NCBI GenBank assembly: GCA_964471165.1
Contig: CAYYEX010000002.1
Coordinates: 124,965 to 188,964 of the forward strand
DNA: 64,000 nucleotides
DNA from: an uncultured Candidatus Saccharibacteria bacterium
Lineage (GTDB): Bacteria; Patescibacteriota; Minisyncoccia; Phycocordibacterales; UBA2100
Reading direction: 5' to 3'
Shown piece after piece: positions 10,974-62,700 of the stretch (position 1 is the stretch's first letter; every line of letters begins with the position of its first letter). A program made the translations under genes and the position numbers. Below the pieces are notes generated by a model that saw only the letters and a program-made list of their open reading frames with translations, had not been told where the DNA came from and made no database searches.

Positions 10974-11033
10974 TCGAGTGTCATACAACACGGGCGAGTG
11001 GATGTTTCCCGGACACCCGCGTACACTGTGCCG

Positions 11034-11378
11034 ATGAAGTCTTTTTCTGGCACGGTCATTCGCGGCTCACAACGAGCAGCGTCTCTCGGATATCCCACCA
11101 TCAATCTTGCCGTCGACAACATGAATACCGATGGCATTTTTGCTGCGATGGTTGTTATCGACGGCCGCGAGCGCATGGCGGCAGCCTTTGCCGACCCACT
11201 GCGCGGCCTCCTCGAGGCGTACATTCTTGATGTAACTGAGGATTTTTACGGGAGGGAGGCGAAAATCGTGCTCCACAAGAAAATACGTAGAAACCAACAC
11301 TTCGCTACCGACGAACTCCTCAAAGCGGCAATCGCTTCCGATGTGGAAAATGTTCGGGCATACTTCACACAATTATGA
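11034..11378 (+). CDS. monofunctional riboflavin kinase (flavokinase, bacterial/eukaryotic RFK type)
   Basis: GTVIRGSQRAASLGYPTINL matches the G.V..G...G..LG(F/Y)PTxN flavokinase motif; ~115 aa. Confidence 0.75.
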   Translation: MKSFSGTVIRGSQRAASLGYPTINLAVDNMNTDGIFAAMVVIDGRERMAAAFADPLRGLLEAYILDVTEDFYGREAKIVLHKKIRRNQHFATDELLKAAIASDVENVRAYFTQL

Positions 11379-12337
11379 CGCCGGTAGCTCGCTCGCTCGC
11401 GTTTTTCGGCCCACTCCTTGTGTTTGCTGCCGCAATGCTCTGGGCTACCGACGCCCCGTTCCGTACTCATCTCACAACTGATTTATCATCAAGCTTTATT
11501 GTGCTTGCCGAACACGCCGTGAATCTGTTGTTCGTGATTCCGATTCTTTTCTTCAACTGGCGAGAGCTCGGAAAGTTTACTAAACGTGAGTGGGGAGCAG
11601 TGCTTGTAATTGCAGTCGGCGGCTCCGCCCTTGCTTCCATTGCGTTTACTGAGTCGTTCAAATATGTAAACCCATCGGTTGCGATACTTTTGCAAAAAGT
11701 ACAACCACTTATCGCGATTTCACTTGCAGCACTTCTCCTGAAAGAGACAATGCATAAATATTTCTGGATATGGGCTGCGATTGCTATGGGGGGCGCGTAT
11801 CTCATCAGCTTTCCGTCTATTCGTCCGCAGCTCTACGACGGCGAAGTGTTTAACCCGAACACACTTGGCGTACTCTTCGCGCTCCTGGCCGCAGTACTTT
11901 GGGGTGCTTCGACAGTGCTGGGGAAGTATGCGCTGCGCGTAAGTTCGTTCCAGATGCTCACCGCGCTTCGCTTCGGTATTGCATTTGTATTCTTGTTTTT
12001 TCTCGCCTCCACGCAAGACCAACTGCCACCATTTGCCGCGGTCACGTCTACCGATTGGCTTTTCATCGCTATCGTAGCGGCAGTATCCGGTGTGTTCTCC
12101 CTCTCCCTCTATTACTACGGTCTCCAATACACCAAGGCATCGATTGCCACACTTGCAGAGCTCGGGTTTCCGCTCGCTGCAGTTTTTGTAAACGCATATT
12201 TTATTGCGGGCAACGTACAGCCGGGGACATACTTCGGACTATTCTTAGGTCAATGGCTCGGAACAGCACTGCTTCTTTTCTCGCTCTACATGCTTAGCCG
12301 TGAGAACAGCGCGGAAGCTGCAGTTGCTGTCGCATGA
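11375..12337 (+). CDS. EamA/DMT-superfamily 10-TM transporter
   Basis: two EamA-like halves, 10 TM helices; embedded in flavin gene cluster (RibN-type riboflavin importers belong to this superfamily). Confidence 0.7.
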   Translation: MTPVARSLAFFGPLLVFAAAMLWATDAPFRTHLTTDLSSSFIVLAEHAVNLLFVIPILFFNWRELGKFTKREWGAVLVIAVGGSALASIAFTESFKYVNPSVAILLQKVQPLIAISLAALLLKETMHKYFWIWAAIAMGGAYLISFPSIRPQLYDGEVFNPNTLGVLFALLAAVLWGASTVLGKYALRVSSFQMLTALRFGIAFVFLFFLASTQDQLPPFAAVTSTDWLFIAIVAAVSGVFSLSLYYYGLQYTKASIATLAELGFPLAAVFVNAYFIAGNVQPGTYFGLFLGQWLGTALLLFSLYMLSRENSAEAAVAVA

Positions 12338-13078: not shown

Positions 13079-13720
13079 ATGTTCACGGGAATTATTGAAA
13101 AGCTGGCACGTGTGAAAGTGACCAAAAGACAGAACAAGGGGATTCGTGTTCAAATCGAGAAGCCTCGCGGATGGAAGCTCGTCATCGGCCAAAGCATTTC
13201 GGTTGATGGTGTTTGTTCAACTGTTGTTGCGCTGTCCGCAGGAGGCTTCGATGTCGTCTATATGCCCGAGACACTTCTGAAAACAACAGCCCGTTCGATT
13301 GCAAAAGACTCGCGAGTGAATCTTGAACGTTCGTTGGTATATGGAGCGCGTATTGAGGGGCATATTGTGCAAGGACACGTTGACGCGCAGAGTAAAATCA
13401 CGAGCATCGTTCAACAAGGGTCGTCGCGACTCCTCACGTTTCCGATTCCTGTCGCGTATAGGCGGTTTGTAACCCTCCATGGGTCAATCACTGTGCATGG
13501 TGTTTCGTTAACCGTTGCCCGTCTCAAGACGGGATTGTGCACGGTGGCGCTTATTCCGCACACACTCTCGCATACAAATCTCGGTCATCTGGCGAAAGGG
13601 GACGCTGTAAATATCGAGGTCGATTACCTAGCTCGATATGGCATTGCTGCGCCTTGGCAGAGTGGTACAGTACTCCGCAATGCAACGAAAGGAATACAAA
13701 AAAGAGCGCGCAGTCGGTAA
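13079..13720 (+). CDS. ribE: riboflavin synthase (alpha subunit)
   Basis: MFTGIIEKLARV start, two lumazine-binding repeats (GQSISVDGVCSTVV / GSITVHGVSLTV), ~210 aa. Confidence 0.85.
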   Translation: MFTGIIEKLARVKVTKRQNKGIRVQIEKPRGWKLVIGQSISVDGVCSTVVALSAGGFDVVYMPETLLKTTARSIAKDSRVNLERSLVYGARIEGHIVQGHVDAQSKITSIVQQGSSRLLTFPIPVAYRRFVTLHGSITVHGVSLTVARLKTGLCTVALIPHTLSHTNLGHLAKGDAVNIEVDYLARYGIAAPWQSGTVLRNATKGIQKRARSR

Positions 13721-33211: not shown

Positions 33212-33817
33212 ATGGTGCCACTTCCCGCGATATATGAACGAGCCAAAATTGGCTCGATACAGTCGAAAAACGGTGAATCGTTCGATATTGTGATAGGGCT
33301 CGATACAGCACTTGTTGATCAGCTTATTGCATACTCAGTCGATGCAAGCGACGTTGATTTACAAAACAACACGTCAGACCGAAAGCGCTTTGGTGAGGGC
33401 TCATACGAAGAATGGTTCAACAAAGAGCGCACGCCATATGCATTGGTCAGTAATGACGGAACACTCGCCGCGCTCGCATGGTTCGGGCCAAAGCCAATCG
33501 GTCGCAAGTCATTGCGCTATCTGAGCGAGGCGGAGCTAAGAGAAGAGTATTCGCAGGCCAAAGGGGATGCCCATACAATTGTGTATCGGTCGTATAATCC
33601 ATTTCGAGGCCAGGGACTTATGTCGGGGTTCATGCGCTTCGCAATAGACGACTATCGAGCACGACATCCTGGCGCGAAGCTCTGGGCGGGAGTGAGCACG
33701 CACAATCAAGCGAGTGTCGCGCTGGCTACCAAGCTGGGATTTGTATATTCAGAGGAATACTCCGATCCGGAACAAGACTGGGCACTTATGTTTGAAAATG
33801 ATGTATGGCGCGCGTAA
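33212..33817 (+). CDS. GNAT-family N-acetyltransferase (tentative)
   Basis: C-terminal acetyl-CoA-binding-like RGQGLMSGFMRFAIDD...LWAGVSTHNQASVALATKLGF. Confidence 0.4.
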   Translation: MVPLPAIYERAKIGSIQSKNGESFDIVIGLDTALVDQLIAYSVDASDVDLQNNTSDRKRFGEGSYEEWFNKERTPYALVSNDGTLAALAWFGPKPIGRKSLRYLSEAELREEYSQAKGDAHTIVYRSYNPFRGQGLMSGFMRFAIDDYRARHPGAKLWAGVSTHNQASVALATKLGFVYSEEYSDPEQDWALMFENDVWRA

Positions 33818-34956
33818 AACTTAGCGAATATTCAGCAAAGAAGATTCTACTCGGGGACACCTACACTGGTGTGAGCCTGCGCTCCGGCGCTCTTTCGATT
33901 CCGGCAGGACGATGGGTTGCAAAAGTGGACCAGGGCGTGAAAAAGCGTTTCAAGCAAGGCTTGGTCGTCGTGGATAAAAGTGAAAGTGAAATCAAGCAAG
34001 CGATTGAACAGTGGGAGCAGAAAGGTTTCTCCCAATTTATTCTTGATCCGCTCGTCGCACATGATTCAAAAGATGCCCGGTATATTTCATTTGAACGCGT
34101 GCGTGAGGGGATTCGTGTTTTGTTTTCGAGAGATGGAGGTATTGATATAGAAGAGCACCCCGAAGCGGTCACGCAGTATTTGATGAAAGTTGAGAGCGAT
34201 ATAGCCCACGTGGCTTCCGAAACTGGTGTTCCTGAATCGTTTCTCTCGCGTGTGTACCGCGCGTTTCAAAAAGAATTTTTTGCCTTTCTCGAAATCAATC
34301 CGCTCCTCGTTATAAACGGTACTGCAGAGTTATTGGACGCTGCCGCATTGGTTGACAGCGCAGGAGAGTTCTTCGTGCGAGATTCCTGGACGGGGGATGA
34401 TGTCATCAAACAGAGAGCGAAACATCCCGCCGAAACGAGAGTTGAAAAACTTGCTGCAACTACCCCCGCATCTCTCAAGCTTTCGGTTATCAATCCAGAT
34501 GGAGCGCTTTTTTTTCTGCTCTCCGGCGGTGGAGGCTCCATCGTGATTGCTGACGAAGTTCAGCTCCGAGGTGCGGGGGCGCTTTTGGCAAACTATGGCG
34601 AATATAGCGGGGGGCCGACACGCGAGGAAACCTATTTGTACGCAAAAGAAATTCTTGGACTCCTCATTGATTCCTCGGCAAAGAAAAAAGCACTGGTAAT
34701 CGCGGGTGGGGTGGCGAACTTTACCGATGTTAAAAAAACATTTCTCGGCATCATTGACGCGCTTGCCGAGGTGGCACCCAAGCTGCGCGCAGCTGGTGTG
34801 CGCGTGTTCGTGCGACGCGGTGGTCCCAACGAAGCCGCTGGCCTCAAACTCATGCAGGACTTTCTCGAAAAAGAAGCCCTCCAGGGTGCTGTGTATGGTT
34901 CGGACACCGTTATTACGCGCGCAGTGGAAGACGCGATTACATTTATACAGGTATGA
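33805..34956 (+). CDS. aclB: ATP-citrate lyase beta subunit (ATP-grasp, SucC-like)
   Basis: near-collinear matches to human ACLY N-terminal half: FAFLEINPLLV, ASLKLSVINPDGALFFLLSGGGGSIVIADE, ANYGEYSGGPTREETYLYAKEILGLL, LVIAGGVANFTDVKKTF, VFVRRGGPNEAAGLKLM. Confidence 0.9.
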   Translation: MARVKLSEYSAKKILLGDTYTGVSLRSGALSIPAGRWVAKVDQGVKKRFKQGLVVVDKSESEIKQAIEQWEQKGFSQFILDPLVAHDSKDARYISFERVREGIRVLFSRDGGIDIEEHPEAVTQYLMKVESDIAHVASETGVPESFLSRVYRAFQKEFFAFLEINPLLVINGTAELLDAAALVDSAGEFFVRDSWTGDDVIKQRAKHPAETRVEKLAATTPASLKLSVINPDGALFFLLSGGGGSIVIADEVQLRGAGALLANYGEYSGGPTREETYLYAKEILGLLIDSSAKKKALVIAGGVANFTDVKKTFLGIIDALAEVAPKLRAAGVRVFVRRGGPNEAAGLKLMQDFLEKEALQGAVYGSDTVITRAVEDAITFIQV

Positions 34957-36743
34957 CGATTCTTGAACGCATTCGAAACGGAGAGGACGGCATCCTCGTC
35001 ATAGGGAATCACCCAGGTATTGTGCAATCAATTCTCGATTTTGATGCCCTCTCTGGGAAGGGGCGCGCATCTGTCGTTGGCATTATTGCAGGCACGCGAA
35101 AAGCCCAAAAGTTTTTCTTTGGGGGCACAGAAGTGTTGATTCCGTGTTTTTCTAACGTCGCAAAGATTCCGAAAGACGTTGGCGGGAGAGTTAAGTGGAT
35201 GCTCAACGCGCAGTCGGGGCGTCGCTCATTCTCCTCGACGGTGGGATTTTTTGAAGCATTTCCCGATGCGCTTGGCGGGCACCTGTTTGCAGAAAACATA
35301 CCCGAAAGTCATGCAACGGAACTCATTGCACGTTTCGGTAACCGCTACCTGATTGCAGGGCCATCTGGGGTGGGATTGCTTGTGTCTCATTGTCTAAAAC
35401 TTGGCGCTATTGGCGGAACCGATGTTGCACAGATTATGGCGGGAAAGCTCGCTACGGAGGGTTCTGTGGCAGTTGTGTCCACCTCAGGTGGTATGACCAA
35501 CGAGCTCATCCGCGCCGTGTCACTTGCAGGCAAGCGGGTCTCATTTTCACTCTCAATAGGCGGAGACCGATTTCCTATCACGTCGCTCTCGCAGGTGCTC
35601 TCGCTTGCCGAAGAAGACGCAGCCACGAAAGCAATCGTGTATTTCGGCGAGCTCGGCGGGTCAGATGAGTACGAGATTGTTGAGCTTCTCAAAGCGGGAA
35701 AACTGACCAAGCCGATTATTTGTTACGTCGCAGGGGTAATCGACGAGGCGTTCGACGAACGAATGCAGTTCGGTCATGCCAAGGCGCTGGTTGCCCATAA
35801 AGATGAAAGTGCGCGCGCCAAACGTGAAGCGCTCAACGCCGCTGGTGCAATTGCGCCGGAATCATTCCCGCTTTTTCTCAATGCGCTAGCTGACCTGCCG
35901 CTGCCAGAGATTCGTGATACCGTCATTGATACAAAAGCATTTATGGACAGAAAGCCAAGTATTCTCTCATCACGAAAAATTGTCGACCTCGATACGGTTC
36001 CCGTATTTGTGAAGGACGGGGTACTTGTTACTCAGCCACAAAATGCATTTGCAGCTGCAGCGCTCAAGGCATTGCTGGGGCGCGAAGTTTCCGCCGAGAC
36101 TGCTGCGTTTGTCGAAAACATTTTTGAACTCCTCATCGACCACGGTGGTCACGTCTCCGGTGCCGTAAACACCATGGTCACCGCACGCGCGGGCAAAGAC
36201 ATGGTCTCATCCCTCGCCGCAGGGCTCCTCACGGTAGGTCCCCGTTTCGGGGGAGCGGTGAACGAAGCTGCGCGAACTTGGCATGATGGCGTAGTCTCAG
36301 GTGTTGAAGCATCGGTCTATGTGGAGGCGCAGAACAAAGCAGGGAAGCTCCTCGCGGGCATCGGGCATCGCAAGTATCGTGTTGGCATTCCTGACCCGCG
36401 CGTGTCCGCGCTTTCTGAGTTTGCGGCGCTGCTTACAAAACACCCACATTACGACTTTGCGCGAAGCATTGAACTGGTCACAACAGCAAAGAATGGAAAT
36501 CTCATTTTAAATGTGGATGGCATTATGGCCGCGCTCTTGCTCGATTTCCTCGCTGAAAAGGATGGCCTCAGTAGTCAGGAGATTACAGAGCTCCTGGATG
36601 CGGAGTTTTTCAATGCGTTGTTTATCATCCCGCGCTCAGTTGGATTCATTGCACACTTCATCGAACAAAAAAGAAACGACGAAGGACTGTTCCGTTTACC
36701 AGACGATTTACTGTTTGAACGTGATAACGAAGCAGGGGAATAA
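34953..36743 (+). CDS. aclA: ATP-citrate lyase alpha subunit (CoA-binding, phosphohistidine and citrate-synthase-like domains)
   Basis: STSGGMTNELIRAV, catalytic His motif FGHAKAL, ELLIDHGGHVSGAVNTMVTARAGKDMVSSLAAGLLTVGPRFGGA, GIGHRKYRVGIPDPRVSAL, LILNVDGIMAALLLDFL, GFIAHFIEQKR matching ACLY/AclA. Confidence 0.9.
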   Translation: MTILERIRNGEDGILVIGNHPGIVQSILDFDALSGKGRASVVGIIAGTRKAQKFFFGGTEVLIPCFSNVAKIPKDVGGRVKWMLNAQSGRRSFSSTVGFFEAFPDALGGHLFAENIPESHATELIARFGNRYLIAGPSGVGLLVSHCLKLGAIGGTDVAQIMAGKLATEGSVAVVSTSGGMTNELIRAVSLAGKRVSFSLSIGGDRFPITSLSQVLSLAEEDAATKAIVYFGELGGSDEYEIVELLKAGKLTKPIICYVAGVIDEAFDERMQFGHAKALVAHKDESARAKREALNAAGAIAPESFPLFLNALADLPLPEIRDTVIDTKAFMDRKPSILSSRKIVDLDTVPVFVKDGVLVTQPQNAFAAAALKALLGREVSAETAAFVENIFELLIDHGGHVSGAVNTMVTARAGKDMVSSLAAGLLTVGPRFGGAVNEAARTWHDGVVSGVEASVYVEAQNKAGKLLAGIGHRKYRVGIPDPRVSALSEFAALLTKHPHYDFARSIELVTTAKNGNLILNVDGIMAALLLDFLAEKDGLSSQEITELLDAEFFNALFIIPRSVGFIAHFIEQKRNDEGLFRLPDDLLFERDNEAGE

Positions 36744-36793
36744 ATGAAGGAGGCTACCCGCGAACGCGCGGGTAGCCTGCCATGTTCTCTGGT

Positions 36794-37039
36794 TCATGCC
36801 GCAGCGGCATGCCACTGAGATTTCAAAGCATCGAAATCGGCGTCGTCGATGTAGACGGTGAACACCGGATTGCCCGGGTCACTCTCGTCGACATCTTCAA
36901 CAATCGCCAAGATGGTTGTCGTCAATTCGATTTGCGAATCGAGTCCGGTTCCATCGGGCACTTCGATGATGCGCTCGAGTGGGTCACCATCGACGGGGTC
37001 AGTCACGCGTTTGATTACCACACGTACTTTCATGGGCAT
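36794..37039 (-). CDS. small acidic hypothetical protein (81 aa)
   Basis: ORF MPMKVRVVIKRVTDPVDGDPLERIIEVPDGTGLDSQIE... on the opposite strand of the non-coding-looking 5' extension of the next large ORF; weak support. Confidence 0.3.
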   Translation of the reverse strand: MPMKVRVVIKRVTDPVDGDPLERIIEVPDGTGLDSQIELTTTILAIVEDVDESDPGNPVFTVYIDDADFDALKSQWHAAAA

Positions 37040-37117
37040 CCCTCCATTTTCAGCCGTTCGAATTCGCTCCAGTCATCATCAAAACGCCGGATTGAGTGCG
37101 AGTCAAGTGAATGCCGG

Positions 37118-39151
37118 ATGATAGAATGGTCGATAATGGACCCTTCGGAGCACGAGCAGGAACGAATAGAACAACTGCGACGCGCGATGTACTCGCGCAA
37201 ACTTTCGGGACAAATTCATGAACGCCCTCGTCGCGAGCTCGAACACGACCGCGAAATAGTGGGCGAAGATTGGAAAATGGCCGAGCCGGAGCTAAATAAA
37301 ATGCGCGTTGCGCCGAGATTCATTGGTACGACTCGTGCAATATTGAAATGGTTCTTGGTCATGTCGGTTGTTTTCTTTGTTGCGGCAGCAGGATTTTTTG
37401 GCTTCTACTTCCTGTTCGGTGGGGGTAGTCACCCGGCGAGTCCCGGCAATATCGACATTTCGGTTTCTGGTCCTCCGCAGGTTGCGGGTGGCGAGCCCGT
37501 CGAATTGCAGATTACCGTCGTGAACCGAAACCGCGTTCCGCTAGAACTCGCAGACCTGCTTGTCACATTCCCGTCCGGTACGCGCTCAGTCGCTGACTTT
37601 GCGACCGACCTCCCGAGCCTTCGACAATCGCTCGGTACAATCGAGCCAGGTGGTCGACGACAGGGCACCATTTCCGCGGTATTTTCTGGGGCAGGTGGGC
37701 AGACAGGCAATGTAAAGGTAGAGCTTGAATACCGAGTACAAGGGTCGAGTGCAATTTTTGTCGCGAATCATAATTACGCCCTTACCTTTACGTCCTCTCC
37801 ACTTTCAATTTCTGTAGACGGTAATACCCAAACAACATCGGGGCAGAATGTGCAGTTCACTGTCAGCGTTGCATCAAATGCGAGTGCTCCATTGCGTGAC
37901 GTTGTGCTCGACATGACATATCCATTCGGATTTAAGTTTACGAGCGCATCTCCTGCTCCCGTGAAGGGCAGCTCATGGGCACTCGGGGACTTTTCGCCGG
38001 GTCAGCGTAAATCAATCCTTGTGCAAGGAACACTTGCTGGAGAGCAGGGAGATAAACGAGTGTTCCGGATTTCAGCGGGAACCCGAAATGCGACATCAAC
38101 GGGGGTTACAACAAAACTTGCCGACAACACGTATGAGATGAAAATCGCAGCAGCGTTTCTTGGGCTCACCATTAATACCAACACAAGTCAGGCGGCTGAA
38201 AAACCGAATGACTTTGAATCACAGCCGAAAATTGGATTACCGATTGCAGCCCCGGGCTCCACTGTTACGGTCACCATCGACTATCAGAACAACCTCTCGG
38301 TCGACATCAGCGATGCGGTTATCGTTGCGCGTCTTTCAGGACTTGCAGTGAACGGAGAGAGTGTGCGTGTAAACGATGGATTCTATCGCTCGTCCGACGA
38401 CACTGTCATTTGGGATAAAAGTACGACGAGGGGAGACCTTGCGAGTCTTTCTCCGGGGAAGCGCGGCACGGTCTCGTTCTCATTCATTATGCCTGCGCCG
38501 AAAACCGCTACGGGGGACCCAAAAATCGACATCAGTGTGAACGCGGCAGGTAAGCGACTGTCTGAAACCGGAGTTCCGCAGAGCCTGCAATCTACCGCTA
38601 AGGCACAGGTGCGTCTCGCAAGCGATTTACAACTCGCCGCTCAAGCGCTCTATACGCAGAACCCGTTTGGAGTTGCCGGTCCGATGCCGCCCAAAGCTGG
38701 CACCGAAACAGAGTATGCCCTCGTGTTCACAATCACGAATACAACCAGCAACCTTACCGGGGCAAAGGTTACGGCAAAACTTCCGTCGTACGTGCGATGG
38801 ATTGGGTCGCATGCGCCGCGCACCGAAAACCTTACCTTCAACCAATTCGACGGCACGTTTACCTGGGAGATTGGCAATATTGCACCGGGCACGGGAGTAA
38901 ATGGCACCCAGCCGCGCCAGATTGCTATTTCAATCGGTCTCACGCCGTCGACAAGCCAGATAGGCGAGCAGCCGGTGCTTGTGCAGAACGTAACGCTCAC
39001 CGGTACCGATGAGTCGACGGGTACAGCAGTGACTCGCAAGGCAGAGCCGGATGTAACGACCAACCTCGGACAAATCGGTAAAACGTCGACCGGCTTTACG
39101 GTGAACCCAGATTCCGGCTTCCTCCCCGCCAATGCGACAGTTGTGAAATAG
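37118..39151 (+). CDS. large membrane-anchored extracellular protein (beta-rich, DUF11-like repeats)
   Basis: start at MIEWSIMDPSEHEQ; cytoplasmic ~80 aa, TM ILKWFLVMSVVFFVAAAGFFGFYFLF, ~580-aa Thr/Ser/Val-rich ectodomain. Confidence 0.65.
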   Translation: MIEWSIMDPSEHEQERIEQLRRAMYSRKLSGQIHERPRRELEHDREIVGEDWKMAEPELNKMRVAPRFIGTTRAILKWFLVMSVVFFVAAAGFFGFYFLFGGGSHPASPGNIDISVSGPPQVAGGEPVELQITVVNRNRVPLELADLLVTFPSGTRSVADFATDLPSLRQSLGTIEPGGRRQGTISAVFSGAGGQTGNVKVELEYRVQGSSAIFVANHNYALTFTSSPLSISVDGNTQTTSGQNVQFTVSVASNASAPLRDVVLDMTYPFGFKFTSASPAPVKGSSWALGDFSPGQRKSILVQGTLAGEQGDKRVFRISAGTRNATSTGVTTKLADNTYEMKIAAAFLGLTINTNTSQAAEKPNDFESQPKIGLPIAAPGSTVTVTIDYQNNLSVDISDAVIVARLSGLAVNGESVRVNDGFYRSSDDTVIWDKSTTRGDLASLSPGKRGTVSFSFIMPAPKTATGDPKIDISVNAAGKRLSETGVPQSLQSTAKAQVRLASDLQLAAQALYTQNPFGVAGPMPPKAGTETEYALVFTITNTTSNLTGAKVTAKLPSYVRWIGSHAPRTENLTFNQFDGTFTWEIGNIAPGTGVNGTQPRQIAISIGLTPSTSQIGEQPVLVQNVTLTGTDESTGTAVTRKAEPDVTTNLGQIGKTSTGFTVNPDSGFLPANATVVK

Positions 39152-43114: not shown

Positions 43115-45910
43115 ATGTCCTCTGGACCGGAAGGGAAGTTCAAGAAGCAGAGTCGCAACAGGCTCACCCTAAAATCTGCCATCGCAGCACTTGCGATTAT
43201 TGGTGCGCAACCCGCAGAGGCGCAGTATACGAAGGAGCAAGACACACAATCCCAAACTTTGCGCGACGTTCCGAAGGCGAATATCGACCAATCGGGGGCT
43301 CGTATTCGAGAATCATTTGCGCAGCACAAGAGGGGTATCGAGAGACTTCGTAAGTATTTTGGCGCCGATGATCCTATCGTGAAGGAAGAGATGCATACGC
43401 TGGAGCTCACGGAGCCGCTATTGCAAGACGGGCGATATATACAGGGCGTGATAGAGATTGAACGCAAAGGTGGAAAACTGCATCAAATCGTCGGCTCTAC
43501 ACACCCGGACGTAGTGATGGACGCGCCAAGGCTCGCGAAGATTCTTGAGCGTATACCGGATGAGATAGTCGGACATTACAGAATGAACGGCTCTGATTTG
43601 AGTGAAGATGCGAGATACTCCTACCATCGGACGGGAGTCGTCGAGCTCGCACAGAGCCTTTCTGAACGCGGGATTATTCTCTCTGGCGAAGAATTGAATC
43701 GAGTGCTGGACATCAGGGTTGATGTACCTGACATTTCCGAGACGTTGACGCGCCTGCAATCAGAGGGGGGTCAGTTTCTGAGCATCACCGAAGTACTGAA
43801 AAAGATACGGGATAAATATTTCGATCCAAGTGCTCTGAGTGACCCTGAATTTGTTCAGGGCCTCATTGACCTCGGCAAATCAGATATCTCTTTAGGTGAG
43901 CTCAGCAGCGCACCTGATGAGAAGTTTAAGTCTCGGATCGTCGAAGCGGTACGTGATCCGGTGTTCGTAAAAACCTTGATTGAGTTGAGGAAAATGAAAA
44001 TGCCGATGTGGAGCTCAGACATGCTCTCAGTTGCGCCAGAAGTCTATCGCAGCCCTTCGTATCTCGGCAATATGCGCATCGCATTGGAAAAGAAAGTTAG
44101 TTTTCTCAGTGCTCGCATGAATGAGCCAGCCATGGCACAGGAGGGTCTTGCGACCCTTCTTTTGTCAGCGGATAAGGACCATGCGAGCGATGTTTTCGAT
44201 GCTGCGAGAAAGTACGGCAGTGATCCGGTTGTGTGGCAGCGTGCCATAGAGTCAGCTTCGAAGCACAAAGACGACGCGCGCTACATGACACTGTTCTACC
44301 AACTGGATTCGGATCGCATAAGGAACGATGAGTACATGGCGCGTGTGGATGCTCACATGCGCGACCCGGAAAACCGCAAGACGTTTGATAAGTACTTGGC
44401 GCGGTTCGAGATAGACACCATATACGCCCGAGAAATCGGAGGTATCAATCCGAAGGATGCGCACATCAACGAATATCGCAGGGCGCTGGAGCGACATCAA
44501 AGTGACCCCGTGATGATGCAGATACTGTCGCTGTACCATTTTCGAATACTTCGCGGACCGATTTTGCGAATGAACGAATTGCACGACGGTCGACCTGAAC
44601 TGCGTCTCGAGCAGCTGAAAGATATCGATACTAAAACGCTACTCGACGTCATGGTGGTGGGGGGAGCAGATGCCTATCTATCAACGTTTCGATTGATCTA
44701 TAACGGCAACGGGCATACGGGAAGTGCGCTGAAGCATACTTTCCTTTCTAAGGTTCGCACCGAGTACGGCTCGTTGCATTCATTTTTTCGTGAAACGAAG
44801 CCCAGTGAAAAGACTTTCGGATCGCTGCTGGAGCTCCTGTCGCAAAATAATCTAATAGACACTTTTTTGTCCGACATCGGTACCCTTGAGCAACAGCAAC
44901 AAGTGCTGAGGGAATTCCTTTTTGATTCCTCAAAAGGAATGTCGGAGACCCAAGCGCTCGCGCTCGACGACTTGTTGCACTCGACTAAGAACGAGTCAGT
45001 GAGGAATTTCGTATTTAATTCTGTCCGTGATTTGCGCGACAAAAGCATGAATAATCGCCCAAAGTATATTGCGGACTTGTTAATTGCAGAATACTTCAGA
45101 GATATACGCAGCGTGCCTTTGTGGGCGAAGGAGAGTATCGAACGATACGGTGCTCTATTCCCAGATGTTAGACAGATTGAGGAAGGGTCCGTATTTCGAG
45201 TCGAGAATGGAGTATCTACAAATACACAACTTCATTTCTTCTATGACGACAGAGGTCCGAGTAAACCCGAACATACGTGGGACGGACACATGTCATTTAG
45301 GAATTTTATCCAAAGTTTGGGAGGTTCGGTCACGTGGGACGCTGCGGGAGTGATTCAAAGTATTGTCTCTGGAAAAGGAATTAAGATAACTGACGAAGGG
45401 GATTACGTAAAAATACAGAAGACTGATACGAAATCGAAAAAGGAAGTCGTTATGTTTGCAAATAAGCCGGATCGCAAGGATGAGAATGTGGCAAAGATTC
45501 AGTCAGACCTCATGACGCAATTTAAGCCGCAGACAGTCGTTCACAGGGGGCACAGTTACCATGCCCCGAAAACCATTATGTTGCTCAATGGTGATATCGC
45601 ACTGGTGAACCTTGGTTCGTGCGGTGGCGCTAAGAATATTTCTGACGTGCTCGAAAAAGCGCCGTCGGCACAAGTCATGGCGACTAAGGGTGTGGGGACA
45701 ATGCTTGTTAACGACACGCTTATAACCGCCATCGATAAGACGCTCATGTCGCAAGGTCGGGTCAATTGGGATACGCTGCGTGGGCAGCTTGATTCAGAGT
45801 TCAAAAGGCGCGGTGGTGATGCGAATGAGCGATGGGGGCACTACCAACTCCCGCATCAGAATAGGACCGCGCATTTGATTGCTGCATTAAAGAAACTACC
45901 TAAGGACTAG
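43115..45910 (+). CDS. large secreted alpha-helical hypothetical protein (931 aa)
   Basis: signal peptide LTLKSAIAALAIIGAQPAEAQ; no recognisable catalytic motif. Confidence 0.65.
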   Translation: MSSGPEGKFKKQSRNRLTLKSAIAALAIIGAQPAEAQYTKEQDTQSQTLRDVPKANIDQSGARIRESFAQHKRGIERLRKYFGADDPIVKEEMHTLELTEPLLQDGRYIQGVIEIERKGGKLHQIVGSTHPDVVMDAPRLAKILERIPDEIVGHYRMNGSDLSEDARYSYHRTGVVELAQSLSERGIILSGEELNRVLDIRVDVPDISETLTRLQSEGGQFLSITEVLKKIRDKYFDPSALSDPEFVQGLIDLGKSDISLGELSSAPDEKFKSRIVEAVRDPVFVKTLIELRKMKMPMWSSDMLSVAPEVYRSPSYLGNMRIALEKKVSFLSARMNEPAMAQEGLATLLLSADKDHASDVFDAARKYGSDPVVWQRAIESASKHKDDARYMTLFYQLDSDRIRNDEYMARVDAHMRDPENRKTFDKYLARFEIDTIYAREIGGINPKDAHINEYRRALERHQSDPVMMQILSLYHFRILRGPILRMNELHDGRPELRLEQLKDIDTKTLLDVMVVGGADAYLSTFRLIYNGNGHTGSALKHTFLSKVRTEYGSLHSFFRETKPSEKTFGSLLELLSQNNLIDTFLSDIGTLEQQQQVLREFLFDSSKGMSETQALALDDLLHSTKNESVRNFVFNSVRDLRDKSMNNRPKYIADLLIAEYFRDIRSVPLWAKESIERYGALFPDVRQIEEGSVFRVENGVSTNTQLHFFYDDRGPSKPEHTWDGHMSFRNFIQSLGGSVTWDAAGVIQSIVSGKGIKITDEGDYVKIQKTDTKSKKEVVMFANKPDRKDENVAKIQSDLMTQFKPQTVVHRGHSYHAPKTIMLLNGDIALVNLGSCGGAKNISDVLEKAPSAQVMATKGVGTMLVNDTLITAIDKTLMSQGRVNWDTLRGQLDSEFKRRGGDANERWGHYQLPHQNRTAHLIAALKKLPKD

Positions 45911-53915: not shown

Positions 53916-54520
53916 TAGTGGTCCATATTCCAACATGAAATGAATGGGGTGGACAAACGTCATCTCAATTGACTCCCAGGGGTCAGTGAAGTATTCTGCC
54001 CCGGTAACTTGGGCTATGGATTTCGGCTTGAAATGAGGCCGCAATTCAGACAAAAGTAGTCACAAGTTATCCACAAAACGGAGTTTTGCTCAGACAGGCG
54101 TATTCAGGCTTCCAGTATATAATTGTGCGGACGCATATTCCATGCGTCGCACAGGGAAGCGAAAGCGCTCGCTGTGTCGCTCTTTGACATTTAAATATTG
54201 AATACAAATTCTGGTGATCGCATCACCACCTTTCGTGACGCCTGAATATATGTACGGGTGCTCATGAATTTCGAATTTCGTCGTTACTGATTCTCCCGAC
54301 AGGATTGAAACGCTGTACGACACTTCCTTCTCGCTGCTACTCTCTTGGCTCCGCGTCGACTAATTAGCAAGGGGCTTAGAGTTAGCAAATACATTATTAG
54401 TGGACACTCTATTAATAGAGGGTTCGCAAAAAAACGTACGGGTATTCACGTCGAATGAATACGTGTACGGTTCCGTCCATTCTTTTTGGATGCGCGGAAT
54501 ACAAAGGTCAAACAATAACT

Positions 54521-57500
54521 ATGAGTAAAGCATTAGCAACAAAGAATGTTGCGGCAGTGCTCTTGGGCATCGGTATGATCCTTTCGGTTTTCGCTTTCGC
54601 TACACCAGCTAAGGCAGACACCGCATCGGACCTCCAGGCTCAGATCAACGCATTGCTCGCACAAATCTCTGCACTTCAGGGCGGCGCTTCAAGCGCAGCT
54701 TGCTTCACGTTCACTCAGAACCTCAAATTGGGTTCTAAGGGAGCAGAAGTAATGAACTTGCAGAAATTCCTTAACAGCATGTCCGACACCAAGGTATCCG
54801 TAAGCGGAGCTGGCTCACCGGGCAACGAGACATCGACATTCGGTCCGGCTACGAAAGCAGCTGTGATCAAGTTCCAGAACAAGTATGCAGCTGACATCCT
54901 CACTCCGAACGGACTCACTGCAGGTAATGGTAACTTCTTCGCATCGTCACGCGCTAAGGCAAACAGCCTCTGCGTAACGACACCGACAACGCCGACGACT
55001 CCGGGTACAACCCCAGGCACCCTCGCGGTGACTGCAGGTTCACAGCCGGCTAACTCGCTCGCACCAGCAGGTTCTGCTCGTGTCCCATTCACTAACTTCA
55101 CACTCACGAACACTTCGGGGTCTGCAGTTACAGTGACTGGTGTCACAGTAACCCGCACGGGTCTCGCAGCTGATGGCGCATTCGCAGGTGTAGTTCTTCT
55201 CGATCAGAACGGTCTCCAGATTGGAACACCGCGCACGTTCGACACGAACCACATGGCGACAATTGGCGAAACGATGACACTTCAGGCTGGTCAGTCAATG
55301 ACCTTCACTGTTGCTGGAAACATGGCTACTCCTCTCACCAGCTACGCTGGTCAGGTAGCTGCTCTCCAGGTCACCGCAATCCAGACGTCGAGCACAATCT
55401 CCGGTTCTCTCCCAATCTCGGGTGCTAACCAGACGATCAACTCTTCGCTCGCTATCGGTACGGCAACAGTTATGACATCGTCGTTCGACCCTGATTCCAA
55501 TCAGACGAAGAACATCGGTGACACAGCTGTGAAGTTCTCAGGTGTCCGCATCACTGCGGGTTCAGCTGAAGACGTCCGCCTCTTCTCAGTTCGATGGCGC
55601 CTGAACGGCTCCGCGAGCTCGGGAGACATCTCCAACGTTATGACAGTCATCAACGGCACGAGCTACCCAACGGTTCTCTCTGCTGATGGCCGCTACTACA
55701 CGACTACGGTCTCAGGTGGCGTTCTCATGACGAAGGGCAACTCTGCCGATGTATACGTACAGGGTGACATCACGGGTACGAACTCGAACTCTCGAGTAAT
55801 CGAATTCGACATTGATCGTCAGTCAGACATCTACATCGTCGGTCAGACATACGGCTACGGCATCACGCCAACCGCGTCTGAAACACTTACGGCAGCAGCT
55901 ACGGGCAACCACGGCTCTACGTTCGTAGGTTCTGGCAGCGTTTCTTCGCAGCCGTTCTTCCAGGGCTCAACCGTTAACGTAATCGGTTCGTCGGTAACGA
56001 CAATCGCTCGCGCAACGGAAGTTCCTGCAGCGAACATTGCAATCAACGTCCCAGGCCAGGTACTCGGCGGCTTCGTAGCAGACATCAAGGGTGAAGCACT
56101 CACGATTCAAACTCTGAGCGTTTACGCTGTCGGTGTTGCTACAGGAACAACCAACCAGCTCACAAACGTCACCCTCGTCAACGACGCAGGTGTCGTAGTA
56201 GCAGGTCCGGTTGACGCATCTGCAGGCTTGATCACGTTCAACAACTCGATCACGCTCTCGTCAGGTCGTCATGTCTACACCATCAAGGGAACTGTCCCAA
56301 CAGGTACGTCTAACGGCGGTACCTTCACCCTCAACACGACTCCGTCGGGTTGGACAGGTGTAACGGGTCAAACAACAGGAAACACAGTAACGATTTCGCA
56401 GGGGAACTTCACCATGAACACGATGACTGTTCGCGGTGCACGACTCAACATCACAGCAGCAGCTCAGCCTGCAGCTCAGACAATCGTTGCCGGTGGTTCT
56501 GCAGTCCTTCTTGCGAACATCCAGCTCGACGCATCGCAGTCGGGTGAAGACATCCGCATGAACCAGCTTCCGGTCAACTTCACGAACGTCACAGGCGCAA
56601 GCTCGTGCCAGCTCTGGAATGGATCGACAGCAATCAACACCGGTTCCAACACCGTTAACCCGGCTGGTACTGGTATCACGAACTTCACGTTCGATAACTC
56701 ACTCACAATTCCTAAGGGAACTGTTGTGACGTTGTCACTGAAGTGCAACCTCTCGTCGTCAGCAACCGGTACATACATCACCGGTGTTATCACGAGCGGC
56801 ACACAGACGTACACCGCAACCGGCGTACAGTCTGGCAACTCGTTGACTAACAACACCACTCTCACTGCAACTACCTCGAATAGCGGTACGCAGACGATTG
56901 GTACGAGCTCGCTCGCAGTTACCACATCTCCGTCATCTCCTTCATACGCATATGCGTCTGGTGGTACTACGAATGTGACAATCGGCGCGCTCCAGCTCCG
57001 AGCATCTGGTGAAGACCAGACACTCACTGAGCTTGGTCTCGTTGGCTCTGCTTCAATCGACTCAGACGTCCTCCAGGCTACAATCTGGAACGGCGCAACT
57101 CAGGTTGGAACAGTTACCTTCGTTTCTGGCACCACAGCCGCAACGTCGACACTCTCGACACCGGTAGCGCTTGCTAAGGACACGGATGTTACCCTCACAA
57201 TCAAGGTCAACGTTGCTAACGTTGGTGTTGGTCAGTCAGGAACTCCGGGTGACCTCGTTCAGGTTAACTTCCAGGGCGCTAAGTCCACGGGTGTAAACTC
57301 TGGCAACACGATCTACGCAACCGGCAGCTCGTCTGTCGCCGGCGTACGCATCGAACGCTCTTACCCAACGCTCGCTCTCGTAAGCCTCGGCTCAACGGGT
57401 GCAGCAGACGGTAAGCTCATCCGCTTCTCTGTCACTGCAAACGCAGCTGGCACGATCGGCGTTGAGCAGTTCGCCTTCTCGATCGCAAGCTCGACAGGCG

Positions 57501-57913
57501 TAACGGTCAACAACATCATTCTCTACGCTTACACAGATTCTGGCTTCTCAAGCCCAGTATCAAGCGCAGCTTCTGGTCAGTTGAACGCAACAGGTATGTT
57601 TGCTAGCGGCTCGGTTAAGATCACCACGGACAACGTCACGGGTGGTGTTCTCCAGGTTCCAGCTGGTCAGACCTACTACTTCGAACTCCGCGCTACTGTA
57701 GCGGGTATCCAGACAGGCTCGTCAATCACGACGACTCTCCTCGGCGACTCTGCTTACCAGCGCGCAGCGACAAGCACCCTCAACTCTGCACGTAACTTCG
57801 TATGGTCGCCAAACTCGACGACCACTACATCGTTCGCTGGCTCTGACTTCTCGTCAGGCTTCGGAGTCCCAGGCCTCCCAGCTTCGGGTCTCACGCAGAC
57901 GCGAAACCAGTAA
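54521..57913 (+). CDS. giant Thr/Ser/Gly-rich cell-surface protein with N-terminal peptidoglycan-binding domain (S-layer/adhesin-like)
   Basis: signal anchor MSKALATKNVAAVLLGIGMILSVFAFATPAKA; PG_binding_1-like GSKGAEVMNLQKFL...FGPATKAAVIKFQ...GLTAGNG; >1000 aa beta-rich low-complexity ectodomain. Confidence 0.7.
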   Translation: MSKALATKNVAAVLLGIGMILSVFAFATPAKADTASDLQAQINALLAQISALQGGASSAACFTFTQNLKLGSKGAEVMNLQKFLNSMSDTKVSVSGAGSPGNETSTFGPATKAAVIKFQNKYAADILTPNGLTAGNGNFFASSRAKANSLCVTTPTTPTTPGTTPGTLAVTAGSQPANSLAPAGSARVPFTNFTLTNTSGSAVTVTGVTVTRTGLAADGAFAGVVLLDQNGLQIGTPRTFDTNHMATIGETMTLQAGQSMTFTVAGNMATPLTSYAGQVAALQVTAIQTSSTISGSLPISGANQTINSSLAIGTATVMTSSFDPDSNQTKNIGDTAVKFSGVRITAGSAEDVRLFSVRWRLNGSASSGDISNVMTVINGTSYPTVLSADGRYYTTTVSGGVLMTKGNSADVYVQGDITGTNSNSRVIEFDIDRQSDIYIVGQTYGYGITPTASETLTAAATGNHGSTFVGSGSVSSQPFFQGSTVNVIGSSVTTIARATEVPAANIAINVPGQVLGGFVADIKGEALTIQTLSVYAVGVATGTTNQLTNVTLVNDAGVVVAGPVDASAGLITFNNSITLSSGRHVYTIKGTVPTGTSNGGTFTLNTTPSGWTGVTGQTTGNTVTISQGNFTMNTMTVRGARLNITAAAQPAAQTIVAGGSAVLLANIQLDASQSGEDIRMNQLPVNFTNVTGASSCQLWNGSTAINTGSNTVNPAGTGITNFTFDNSLTIPKGTVVTLSLKCNLSSSATGTYITGVITSGTQTYTATGVQSGNSLTNNTTLTATTSNSGTQTIGTSSLAVTTSPSSPSYAYASGGTTNVTIGALQLRASGEDQTLTELGLVGSASIDSDVLQATIWNGATQVGTVTFVSGTTAATSTLSTPVALAKDTDVTLTIKVNVANVGVGQSGTPGDLVQVNFQGAKSTGVNSGNTIYATGSSSVAGVRIERSYPTLALVSLGSTGAADGKLIRFSVTANAAGTIGVEQFAFSIASSTGVTVNNIILYAYTDSGFSSPVSSAASGQLNATGMFASGSVKITTDNVTGGVLQVPAGQTYYFELRATVAGIQTGSSITTTLLGDSAYQRAATSTLNSARNFVWSPNSTTTTSFAGSDFSSGFGVPGLPASGLTQTRNQ

Positions 57914-59657: not shown

Positions 59658-59708
59658 GGGAGGGGATAGCTTGATGAAGGGCTCATGTGTTGGCATACTG
59701 TCCGGGAT

Positions 59709-62700
59709 ATGACTTCTGCACGCTTTGTGCTCGTCTCTCTCCTCGGCGCACTCCTGGTTCCGTATGCTGCATCTGCTGCGACATATGGTGATATTGGTCA
59801 CGACATCTCGTTCCCGGGAAGTGGCTCTATGGCAGCGATGCAGAACCTGGGCAATGGCAACTTTACCCACGGGGCCGCAGTAACCGGCATGGATGTGCGC
59901 ATTTCCACCGCCGCAGGACAAATGATTAAGGCGTTTATTGTTGAATACGCAATTGATGGTGGACAAACCGCACAATACGGGCCTGTTGATTACGTCACGA
60001 CAGTTGACGGGGAACAGGTATATCACTTTGAACTGCCAGCTCCGTTTACGCCTCGCGCCGACCGATGTTACAACCTCCTGTTCTACCAGTTCCTCGATCC
60101 CTCGGGGACAACGTTCTATGGGTGGTCGAATGAAAAATATGTGGCTTCACACGCAGGGTGCGCATTTGGGCGAAACTCAGATGATGTTGCTTACCTAAAC
60201 CAAAACCCTTCACTCAATTATCCCGGGCTTGTCGATTATTCGTTTGTAATTCATGACGACGGTTTTATTCCGCCCCCACAAGAGCCGGTTGTTCCTCTGG
60301 GCAAAACATACGGAAGTCTCGATGCGGATTTTACTTTTGGGGCACAGGGAACGATGGCCGCGGTGCAGAATCTCGGAAACGGAACGTTTTCTGAGGGAAA
60401 TACAGTAACGGGTGTTGATGTGCGTGTGGCGGCAGTGCCGGGTAATATCATCAAAGCTTCGGTTCGTGAGTTTGACTCTGTGGGCAATCAACTAAACGAG
60501 TACTTCCCGCCCGATTATCTGCCAACGGTAGAGGGTGACCACGTGTACAATTTTGATTTTTCAACTACGTTTACTCCCGACCCATCTCATTGCTACCAGC
60601 TGTATTCCTATCAGGCTAACCTTTCGCCATACAGCAGTACGTACTACGGACATTCGAATGATGTGTATGTGGCTTCAAGTACCGGCTGTGTATTTGGACA
60701 GAATAATGATGACCGGGCACATCTCACCCAAAACCCCAGCTTGAACGCTGACGGATATATTGACTACGCATTCCGCATCCACACAAACGGAGCAACCTCT
60801 ACGCCCCCTGCAACCACGACTCCTGCGTGCACGGAGAATTGCTATTCCAACGTGCTGTTCCTGCCCGGTATCAAAGCGAGTCGTCTGTACCATCCACGCG
60901 GACCGAGCTGTGCGGTCGGCGACTGCGAGGATCAGGTGTGGATACCGAACGCGAACAGTGACGTTGAAGACATGTTCCTAAATCCAGATGGCACAAGCGT
61001 GCGACGAGACATTTATACAAAAGATATTCTCGACAAATATCCGGGAGGAGATGTTTACGACTCTTTCTCAAAGTTTATGAATCAAATGGTTGCTTCGAGC
61101 ACCATAAATAAATGGGATTCTGTGCCATACGACTGGCGACTCGATCTTGAGCATGTGGTGAATAATGGCACCTCCATCGACGGACATATTTCATACGTAG
61201 ACAATGCAACATCTTCGTACGTGATTAACAAACTCGTACAGCTCGCGGAAAGTTCAAAAACAGAGAAGGTGACAATTGTTGCCCATTCAAATGGAGGATT
61301 ATTCGCTAAGGTATTGATGAAGAAACTCGACGAGATGGGAAAGGGCGACCTTGTAGATAAAGTCGTATTTGTTGGGGTGCCGCAGTTGGGGACGCCAAAA
61401 GCGATTGCGACATTCCTGCACGGATACGATGAATCCATCCTGCGCGGGGCGGTGCTCAATGAAGCGACCGCGCGAACGTTCGCTGAAAACGCTGCGGGTG
61501 CGTACACGCTTCTGCCATCTAATGCGTACGTCGCAAAAGTCTCGACGCCGACGGTTGAGTTTTCCTCAACTTCAACAGCAGCCCAGACGCTCTTCAGTCA
61601 ATATGGTGCGTCTATTCAGTCGTACCAGACACTGCGGGCATTTCTGCTTGGTTTTGATGGCCGACAGAAGCCCGCGACGAGCGACGTAGATTCACCAAAC
61701 ATTCTGAACTTTGAACTTCTTAACCGAGCGGAGCAACTTCACAGTGAACTTGATTCATGGACACCACCTGCGGGAGTGAAGTTGTATGAGGTGGCGGGGG
61801 TAGGACTGGAAACGCCTTCAGGGATTAAGTACATTGATAGCTGCAAGTTCCATTGCATGTTTGGGGGGCCCAGTCTTTCATATGAGCCAAGCGTTGTATT
61901 TGAGGGCGACGGAACGGTCGTTGAAGCAAGTGCCCACTCGGGAGATGGTGATCAATACTATTTCAATATTAATCGGTACAACGATACAAATGGTGACCTG
62001 CCGTCGGTCGAGCACGGCACAATCATGAGCCCCCACGCAGTCCTCGATTTTGTCGACTGGGTAATTCGTAATGAGCCGATTCGTCCACTCTCAAATACTA
62101 TTTCTCCGACCGCGCCCAGCTTCGCTGGCCAGAAGCGTATTGCACTTCGCATTCACTCACCGGTCTCTCTCGATTTGTACGATGGCCAGGGGCGGCACAC
62201 GGGGGTGGTCCATGCTGCGCTGCCAGACGGCACCCCGATACGATATGTTGAAAACAATATTCCTGGTGCTCACTACGATGAGTTTGGAGAAGTAAAGTAC
62301 GCATTTACGGACGGTTCGATTCCCGTGCATGTTGTGCTTGATGGGCAGGCATCCGGTTTCGTTACCTACGACATTGACGAAATGGTTGGCAACGATGTGA
62401 TAACGACAACATCATTCGTGAATATCCCAGTCGCAACAAGTTCTGTTATTACGATGGACATTACTGATAATATTTCCACAGCGTCTGACCTCCATATCGA
62501 CGAGGATGGTGACGGCCACGCGGAAGCAATTCTAGAACCGGGCGGGATAGTGTTGTTCGATGTAACCGCGCCCACAACCATAGCTTCTACGACAGGACCA
62601 CTCGGTGCTCATAACTGGTATCTTGGTACAACAACCGTTCAGTTGAGTGCGACTGATAATGACGGAGGCTCGGGAGTAAGTGGTACAGTCTTTTCTCTCG

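Follow-up and report, generated by a model that had tools for sequence, protein, structure and literature searches.

Predicted two-subunit ATP-citrate lyase genes linked to a GNAT acetyltransferase gene in Kaiserbacteria/Paceibacteria-type Patescibacteria

We analysed a 64,000-nucleotide stretch of contig CAYYEX010000002.1 from an uncultured bacterium (hereafter the window), focusing on two plus-strand open reading frames (ORFs) that encode the small and large subunits of an ATP-citrate lyase (ACL): aclB (33805–34956, 383 aa) and aclA (34953–36743, 596 aa). Homology confirms both ORFs as ACL genes, in agreement with a preliminary description of this DNA, which had given their coordinates and sizes exactly. 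The two products probably form a functional enzyme (EC 2.3.3.8), a function assigned by homology, that would run in the cleavage direction and feed a GNAT-family acetyltransferase encoded directly upstream. We likewise judge it probable that citrate cleavage supplies acetyl-CoA for acetylation rather than for carbon fixation. The two genes are translationally coupled, with the aclB stop codon and the aclA start codon overlapping as ATGA, and both subunits show strong purifying conservation of their domain architecture and of their catalytic and ligand-binding residues.

The assignment to ACL was made because the ACL domains are present, because ACLY structures are the best matches in the PDB, and because citryl-CoA synthetase (CCS), citryl-CoA lyase (CCL) and succinyl-CoA synthetase (SCS) score far lower. 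In Pfam, AclB matches the ACL-specific ATP-grasp family PF24948 (Citrate_synth_N; 99.4 bits, cutoff 83) and the citrate-binding family PF16114 (Citrate_bind; 175.5 bits, cutoff 26.8, E = 1e-51). AclA begins with a CoA-binding, SCS-alpha-like part, recognized by PF00549 (Ligase_CoA) and PF13607 (Succ_CoA_lig), the CoA-ligase and flavodoxin-like domains of SCS alpha, and it carries a phosphohistidine, H275, and a fused citryl-CoA-lyase module (PF00285, Citrate_synt C-terminal domain; residues 361–581, E = 8e-25). Both subunits align near end to end with human ACLY and with ACLY-A/B of Methanothrix (Methanosaeta) concilii.

When both subunits were compared with all PDB sequences, the M. concilii enzyme (AclB to 6hxi_A, E = 1.7e-55; AclA to 6hxi_B, E = 4.8e-85) and human ACLY (AclB to 3mwd_A, E = 4.9e-54; AclA, E = 1.3e-94) came out ahead of the Chlorobium limicola ACL (6hxj; AclB, E = 3.9e-33; AclA to 6hxj_B, E = 2.6e-54). 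Far behind followed CCS (6hxq; E = 1e-13 for AclB and 3e-17 for AclA), CCL (6hxp; E = 2e-13 for AclA) and SCS (E = 1e-6 for AclB and 1e-20 for AclA). Expressed in bits, ACLY scored 183–321, Chlorobium ACL 118 and 188, CCS 54–65, CCL 53, SCS 30–75 and citrate synthase at most 41. The near-collinear alignment with human ACLY and the likeness to the eukaryotic enzyme, both pointed out in the preliminary description, are borne out by these scores. Names given to homologues in public databases are inconsistent: NCBI calls them 'hypothetical protein' or 'citrate/2-methylcitrate synthase', and JGI 'ATP citrate (pro-S)-lyase'.

Residues were read from HMMER alignments against human ACLY, with the 6hxh construct numbering plus 60 giving the native numbering. 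In AclA, E114, H275, H397, H472 and R473 correspond to human E599, H760 (the phosphohistidine), H900, H975 and R976, and R483, D522, R561 and R581 to R986, D1026, R1065 and R1085. In AclB, K40, R48, N165 and D178 correspond to K58, R66, N203 and D216, and G269, N305, T307 and R338 to G309, N346, T348 and R379. In ACLY, these positions have catalytic, Mg-ATP-binding or citrate-binding roles, with H760 and E599 catalytic in the CoA-ligase part and H900, H975 and D1026 forming the catalytic His/His/Asp of the lyase module. They include the QFGHA phosphohistidine motif (H275) and the GIGHR (H472) and DPR (R483) motifs that had been named beforehand, all of which were found. Among 120 full-length AclA homologues (67–85% identical), the equivalents of E599, H760, H975, D1026, R1065 and R1085 are present in all 120, that of R986 in 119 and that of H900 in 117, and the position of R976 is variable. 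All eight AclB positions are invariant across 32 orthologues. The phosphohistidine motif itself reads QFGHAKAL, with K277 in place of human Gly762, in 119 of the 120 clade members and in their nearest CPR (Candidate Phyla Radiation) relatives; the sister ACLs of Saccharibacteria-like and DPANN-like type retain GHAGA.

Among known systems, the ACLY-A/B of M. concilii (6hxi, 6znw) and human ACLY (6hxh, 6poe) have the same domain order, with the subunits here split at the same point as in M. concilii, and all catalytic, citrate-binding and Mg-ATP residues are common to them. They are the best sequence matches but only ~35% identical to the window's enzyme, whereas P0139, a member of their group, scores ~690 bits against both structures. 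The subunits here are also shorter than those of M. concilii (383 vs. 421 aa and 596 vs. 631 aa), and the enzyme differs from both relatives in its GHAKA instead of GHAGA motif, its CPR host and its GNAT partner. Chlorobium limicola AclB/AclA share the two-subunit organisation, the aclB-aclA gene order, similar sizes and the same chemistry, but they are more distant in sequence and work within a complete reductive tricarboxylic acid (rTCA) cycle, none of which was seen here. Finally, CCS and CCL of Hydrogenobacter thermophilus are built of homologous modules and reach the same products overall by way of two enzymes, with the lyase as a protein of its own rather than fused to AclA, and with much lower similarity (E = 1e-13 to 3e-17).

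A search of 1.84 billion representatives at 50% identity returned 127 with E < 1e-30, and their identities fell in steps: at least 58% within the clade that contains the window's enzyme, 42–49% for a handful of representatives (one of them a Dojkabacteria protein), and at most 37% for all others. In a bootstrapped neighbour-joining tree built on Kimura-corrected distances, support was 100% both for the Kaiserbacteria-type clade and for the wider CPR group. A group with a Saccharibacteria protein and a group with a DPANN (Norongarragalinales) archaeal protein join at 59–67% support only, and two labelled representatives outside those groups are of the M. concilii/human type. The PDB scores put the enzyme with the ACLY type and apart from SCS and CCS. 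We place the CPR enzyme as a divergent offshoot within the ACLY type of archaea and eukaryotes, not within the Chlorobium type, and the neighbour-joining order of the deeper ACLY-type branches is provisional. One homologous locus (L023, SHZT01000021.1) is labelled Gemmatimonadetes; its aclBA pair is 58% identical, no GNAT gene precedes it, and the contig has 66% GC. Either the genes moved from the CPR clade into another lineage, or the contig was binned or labelled wrongly.

The host is assigned to the Kaiserbacteria/Paceibacteria-type Patescibacteria (CPR) with a small genome, and is probably symbiotic and metabolically reduced. Named proteins among the 120 best AclA homologues come from Kaiserbacteria, Paceibacteria/Paceibacterota and Parcubacteria. 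At least 120 homologue clusters (90% identity), each full length and at least 67% identical to AclA, were counted, together with 34 species-representative genome loci, nearly all from Patescibacteria metagenome-assembled genomes (MAGs). Sequence beyond the window was read from a 298,281-bp ENA metagenome contig with an identical AclA, on which the window occupies ~230.9–294.9 kb. The aclBA genes have a GC content of 0.51–0.525, and in GC, GC at third codon positions (GC3) and codon usage they do not differ from the window as a whole, so that the compositional comparison with flanking genes proposed in the preliminary description found the pair to match its neighbours. The order IleRS-RecO-GNAT-aclB-aclA-DUF11 protein-GlyRS-AI-2E transporter-MetRS-TatD is kept in ~17 related genomes, down to 63% AclA identity. 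The pair has been inherited vertically within the CPR clade and is not a recent import, because its composition is native, its synteny is conserved and its clade is CPR-specific.

Directly upstream, on the same strand, lies a gene for a 201-aa acetyltransferase (33212–33817), the last 13 nt of which overlap the beginning of aclB; we refer to its subfamily as GNAT200. It matches Acetyltransf_1 (2e-7) and Acetyltransf_3 (3e-6) in Pfam, and the acetyl-CoA-binding motif A (R/Q-x-x-G-x-G/A) is present as 'FRGQGLMSGF'. Its AlphaFold2 model has the GNAT fold (pLDDT 91.4), and Foldseek matched it with probability 1.00 to many GNATs, although these neighbours are generic (TM 0.5–0.62); many of them are protein N-acetyltransferases (RimJ, RimL, PAT, NatD). 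As for the acceptor, PDB sequence and profile searches reached only the cofactor motif, and an NCBIfam search likewise gave only generic GNAT matches. The family is lineage-restricted, with ~230 homologues, often on contigs that also carry AclA.

Upstream sequence could be judged at 32 loci, and at 29 of them aclB immediately follows a GNAT gene, at a distance of −13 to +12 nt (median 2). The genes at these loci belong to two subfamilies: 14 loci carry GNAT200 (~200 aa) and 15 carry a classical GNAT of ~142 aa (GNAT142), and one locus (L029) has the two in tandem. The subfamilies share only the acetyl-CoA-binding motif (51 columns in hhalign). The closest profile matches of GNAT142 are a diamine acetyltransferase (6yug, 3e-17), a T. 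brucei N-acetyltransferase (3fb3, 1e-16), which we take to be a GNA1-like enzyme although its PDB title reads 'N-acetyltransferase', and Arabidopsis GNA1 (3t90, 5e-12). Candidate acceptors are small amines, amino sugars and protein N-termini. The three exceptions are L013, where the GNAT gene is displaced by ~1.6 kb, L016, where GNAT142 lies downstream of aclA, and L023. No GNAT-ACL domain fusions occurred among the ACL homologues of odd length, which proved to be fragments or fused-ACLY variants.

The GNAT-aclB-aclA trio is found in at least five outer gene contexts. Besides the context of the window (context A, IleRS-RecO upstream and DUF11-GlyRS downstream), the trio is flanked by PdxT-YceG-phosphoribosyl pyrophosphate synthetase and NUDIX-AtpB (context B), by SLOG-L20-IF3 and CMAS-LexA-like genes (context C), by UvrB and UvrA-UvrC (context D), and by two further, unique sets of genes. 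Given that the flanking families are all housekeeping families, the GNAT is the sole constant neighbour of the ACL genes. Both GNAT types occur within contexts A, B and C, even where AclA is ~82% identical to that of the window.

Loci of the sister clades have other neighbours. In a Saccharibacteria-like locus (L039, 4040–10839), aclBA lie in a glycan biosynthesis cluster with glycosyltransferases, methyltransferases and a flippase, in the order DegT aminotransferase/GFO oxidoreductase fusion, hexapeptide-repeat acetyltransferase, aclB, aclA and GDP-mannose-dehydratase-like enzyme. By its domain assignment, the hexapeptide protein belongs to yet another acetyltransferase family, unrelated to the two GNAT types, that takes the place ahead of aclB. 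Another locus (L042) has an NAD-dependent epimerase gene after aclA, and the neighbours in L042 and L043 gave no matches to either GNAT hidden Markov model. In a DPANN archaeon (L040, GCA_035291125.1, 3250–13325), aclBA lie beside genes for an aspartate-type aminotransferase (Aminotran_1_2), a Lyase_1 enzyme and an OTCase-family carbamoyltransferase, neighbours that possibly point to a use of oxaloacetate for aspartate. A divergent upstream ORF in this locus has sub-threshold GNAT similarity (E = 3e-4).

By homology with ACLY, the ATP-grasp domain of AclB would use Mg-ATP to phosphorylate His275 of AclA, and the phosphate would then pass to citrate bound in the citrate-binding domain of AclB. 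Attack by CoA would yield citryl-CoA, which the C-terminal, citrate-synthase-like module of AclA would split into acetyl-CoA and oxaloacetate. In an organism seemingly without a tricarboxylic acid (TCA) cycle, the enzyme would run toward cleavage, with citrate drawn from the host or the environment. Acetyl-CoA would go to the GNAT acetyltransferase encoded in the same operon, and oxaloacetate would be a by-product that could go to aspartate. The salvage of citrate into acetyl-CoA by a reduced organism, suggested in the preliminary description, fits the CPR host, the absence of TCA genes from view and the adjoining acetyl-CoA-using enzyme. More tentatively, ACL in this lineage could be not a remnant of central metabolism but the source of acetyl-CoA in an operon (GNAT-aclB-aclA) devoted to 'citrate-powered acetylation'; host citrate would then provide the acetyl group for one specific and essential N-acetylation, with an amino sugar or envelope precursor, a polyamine or a protein as the acceptor, by an acetyltransferase exchangeable between unrelated subfamilies.

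Several observations weigh against the reading of a functional lyase that supplies the acetyltransferase. The GHAKA motif of the clade departs from the canonical GHAGA. GNAT200 has only generic structural matches, and GNAT142 matches polyamine and glucosamine-6-phosphate acetyltransferases about equally. At two sister-clade loci (L043 and L044), no acetyltransferase gene stands beside the ACL genes, and no recognisable citrate transporter was found in the window and its flanks. Moreover, gene adjacency shows co-selection, not metabolite channelling.

Three other explanations concern the identity, the origin and the pathway of the genes; the first two are effectively excluded, and the third is very improbable. 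That the pair is a CCS or SCS paralogue and not an ACL, which we regard as extremely improbable, would agree with the names 'citrate/2-methylcitrate synthase' and 'hypothetical protein' that NCBI gives to homologues, and with an NCBIfam scan in which the best matches of both subunits were SCS subunits, CCL and citrate synthase; these matches, however, were far below threshold, and NCBIfam has no ACL model. Neither a placement within SCS or CCS nor a missing citrate-synthase-like domain, the two outcomes named beforehand as fatal to the ACL assignment, was found: ACLY scores in the PDB are 3 to 6 times those of CCS, CCL and SCS, the lyase module and the alpha-like part share one polypeptide, and Citrate_bind and Citrate_synth_N exceed their Pfam cutoffs. 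It is very unlikely that the genes arrived by recent horizontal transfer, or that they sit on a mis-binned or contaminating piece of archaeal or eukaryotic DNA. Such an origin could explain why archaeal and human ACLY lead the PDB matches; archaeal lateral transfer was suggested in 2019 for a Gracilibacterium ACL (PMC6851277), and the homologous locus labelled Gemmatimonadetes has 66% GC. Yet the two genes are embedded in a 298-kb contig, with housekeeping genes of bacterial type on either side, and their GC, GC3 and codon usage are window-typical; their gene order recurs across related genomes; and their clade, with its 100% bootstrap, is only ~35% identical to archaeal and eukaryotic ACLY. 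Given this monophyly, synteny and low identity, any transfer must be ancient, and it is only in this form that the horizontal acquisition raised in the preliminary description holds; as a recent event it fails. The chance that ACL here marks an rTCA cycle and autotrophic CO2 fixation is similarly slight. ACL is the usual rTCA marker gene in metagenomic surveys (PMC12930757, PMC9386943), but the host is a small-genome CPR bacterium and the enzyme is of the ACLY type, not of the Chlorobium type structurally characterised from an rTCA autotroph. Other TCA or rTCA genes (2-oxoglutarate:ferredoxin oxidoreductase, fumarate reductase, pyruvate:ferredoxin oxidoreductase and others) were absent from ~78 kb of the contig, that is, from the 64-kb window, where their absence had already been pointed out, and ~14 kb of further flanks, and from the surroundings of aclBA in the other contexts.

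Two further explanations accept the enzyme as ACL and differ on what it does. The ACL reaction is near equilibrium and reversible, and CPR bacteria are generally fermenters dependent on substrate-level phosphorylation, so that the enzyme might run the other way, forming citrate together with ATP (acetyl-CoA + oxaloacetate + ADP + Pi to citrate + CoA + ATP), and conserve thioester energy by substrate-level phosphorylation. ATP-forming citrate synthesis has reportedly been described for Desulfobacter postgatei, and direction is not fixed by sequence. Nevertheless, we consider this unlikely: the window and its flanks hold no citrate sink and no genes producing oxaloacetate or acetyl-CoA, and the constant GNAT neighbour consumes acetyl-CoA, a better fit to acetyl-CoA production. 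Alternatively, oxaloacetate, for aspartate, asparagine and nucleotide synthesis, could be the product that matters, with acetyl-CoA secondary and the GNAT adjacency a matter of operon hitch-hiking. The aminotransferase, Lyase_1 and carbamoyltransferase genes beside aclBA in the DPANN relative speak for such a role, which is not mutually exclusive with the acetyl-CoA role. As the principal function it seems rather improbable, as the Kaiserbacteria-type loci link no gene for an oxaloacetate-using enzyme to aclBA and hitch-hiking leaves unexplained why a GNAT is kept through at least five contexts and through replacement of one subfamily by another. More broadly, no transporter, malate dehydrogenase, phosphoenolpyruvate carboxykinase or aminotransferase appeared as a metabolic partner in this clade, whether in the window, in its flanks or among the flanking families of the other contexts.

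ACL has been reported in CPR before. In Gracilibacterium (BD1-5), a two-subunit ACL was proposed to cleave externally derived citrate to acetyl-CoA and oxaloacetate, and ACL was said to be 'rarely detected in CPR' (PMC6851277); aclAB are enriched in Saccharimonadia MAGs (PMC12577380); and a preprint describes mis-annotated citrate-cleavage enzymes in CPR and DPANN (10.1101/2022.10.25.513756). The first two cases likewise place ACL in TCA-poor CPR, but the window's enzyme belongs to a different CPR lineage of Kaiserbacteria/Paceibacteria type and, compared with the Gracilibacterium ACL, is a lineage-wide, syntenic gene pair. The literature searched held nothing on an ACL of the Kaiserbacteria-type clade, on its lineage-wide synteny or on the GNAT linkage, and most matches used ACL as an rTCA marker. 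The operon association with a GNAT may therefore be the new part of the finding.

If citrate cleavage does serve acetylation in these bacteria, it would match, on the bacterial side, the ACLY-dependent acetylation of eukaryotes, and would make these episymbionts depend metabolically on their hosts at a defined point. For an uncultivated CPR lineage, it offers a testable dependence, with citrate going in and acetyl-CoA and oxaloacetate coming out. The near-universal acetyltransferase adjacency, together with the swapping of subfamilies in place, points to the use made of the acetyl-CoA and singles out two small proteins whose acceptors are open to assay. These results also suggest caution with aclA and aclB as rTCA markers in metagenomes, where an abundant CPR clade (at least 120 clusters and 34 species-level genomes) would give false calls of autotrophy. 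Lastly, the CPR clade and its Saccharibacteria-like and DPANN-like sisters form a deep branch in the ACLY-type tree, which is relevant to the origin of eukaryotic ACLY.

The surroundings of the locus, described beforehand as recO and a GNAT gene upstream and a surface-protein gene downstream, were recovered as a RecO_N-domain gene, GNAT200 and a DUF11 protein gene. RecO ends 15 nt before the GNAT200 start, and recO may be co-transcribed with GNAT-aclB-aclA. Downstream, a perfect 12-bp GC-rich hairpin (36751–36778, plus strand) without a U-tract begins 8 nt past the aclA stop; its minimum free energy is −28.3 kcal/mol (z = −4.67), and none of 200 shuffles was as stable. Close relatives (L001–L005, L008 and L026) likewise have GC-rich hairpins at this point, though with other sequences, and the element likely forms the 3' end, or a stabiliser, of the GNAT-aclB-aclA transcript. 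In a scan for sigma-70 promoter and terminator consensus sequences, with no enrichment over shuffles, only this hairpin stood out. Homology of the downstream DUF11/NEW3-type surface protein (ORF 36782–39151) begins at residues 105–123 in 18 loci; the annotated start is probably over-extended, with the real start at M113 or M119 (~37118–37136) and ~375 nt of non-coding sequence before it.

Elsewhere, the window is made up of housekeeping genes of the kind usual in CPR (aminoacyl-tRNA synthetases, RecA, FtsK, NusG, L11, L19, a Mur ligase and PilM) with a few transporters, and Rfam and tRNA scans of the window returned six tRNAs only, none near the locus. A riboflavin kinase gene (10998–11378), an EamA transporter gene (11375–12337) and a gene for a lumazine-binding, riboflavin synthase alpha-like protein (13079–13720) cluster together, a possible sign that this reduced genome keeps part of a route for flavin salvage or synthesis. 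Four very large ORFs of 931–1202 aa (3999–7121, 43115–45910, 54455–57913 and 59685–63293) comprise two with no Pfam match, one with a weak peptidoglycan-binding domain and one with an LCAT/PGAP1-like lipase domain; their products may act at the surface of the CPR cell or in its contact with a host.

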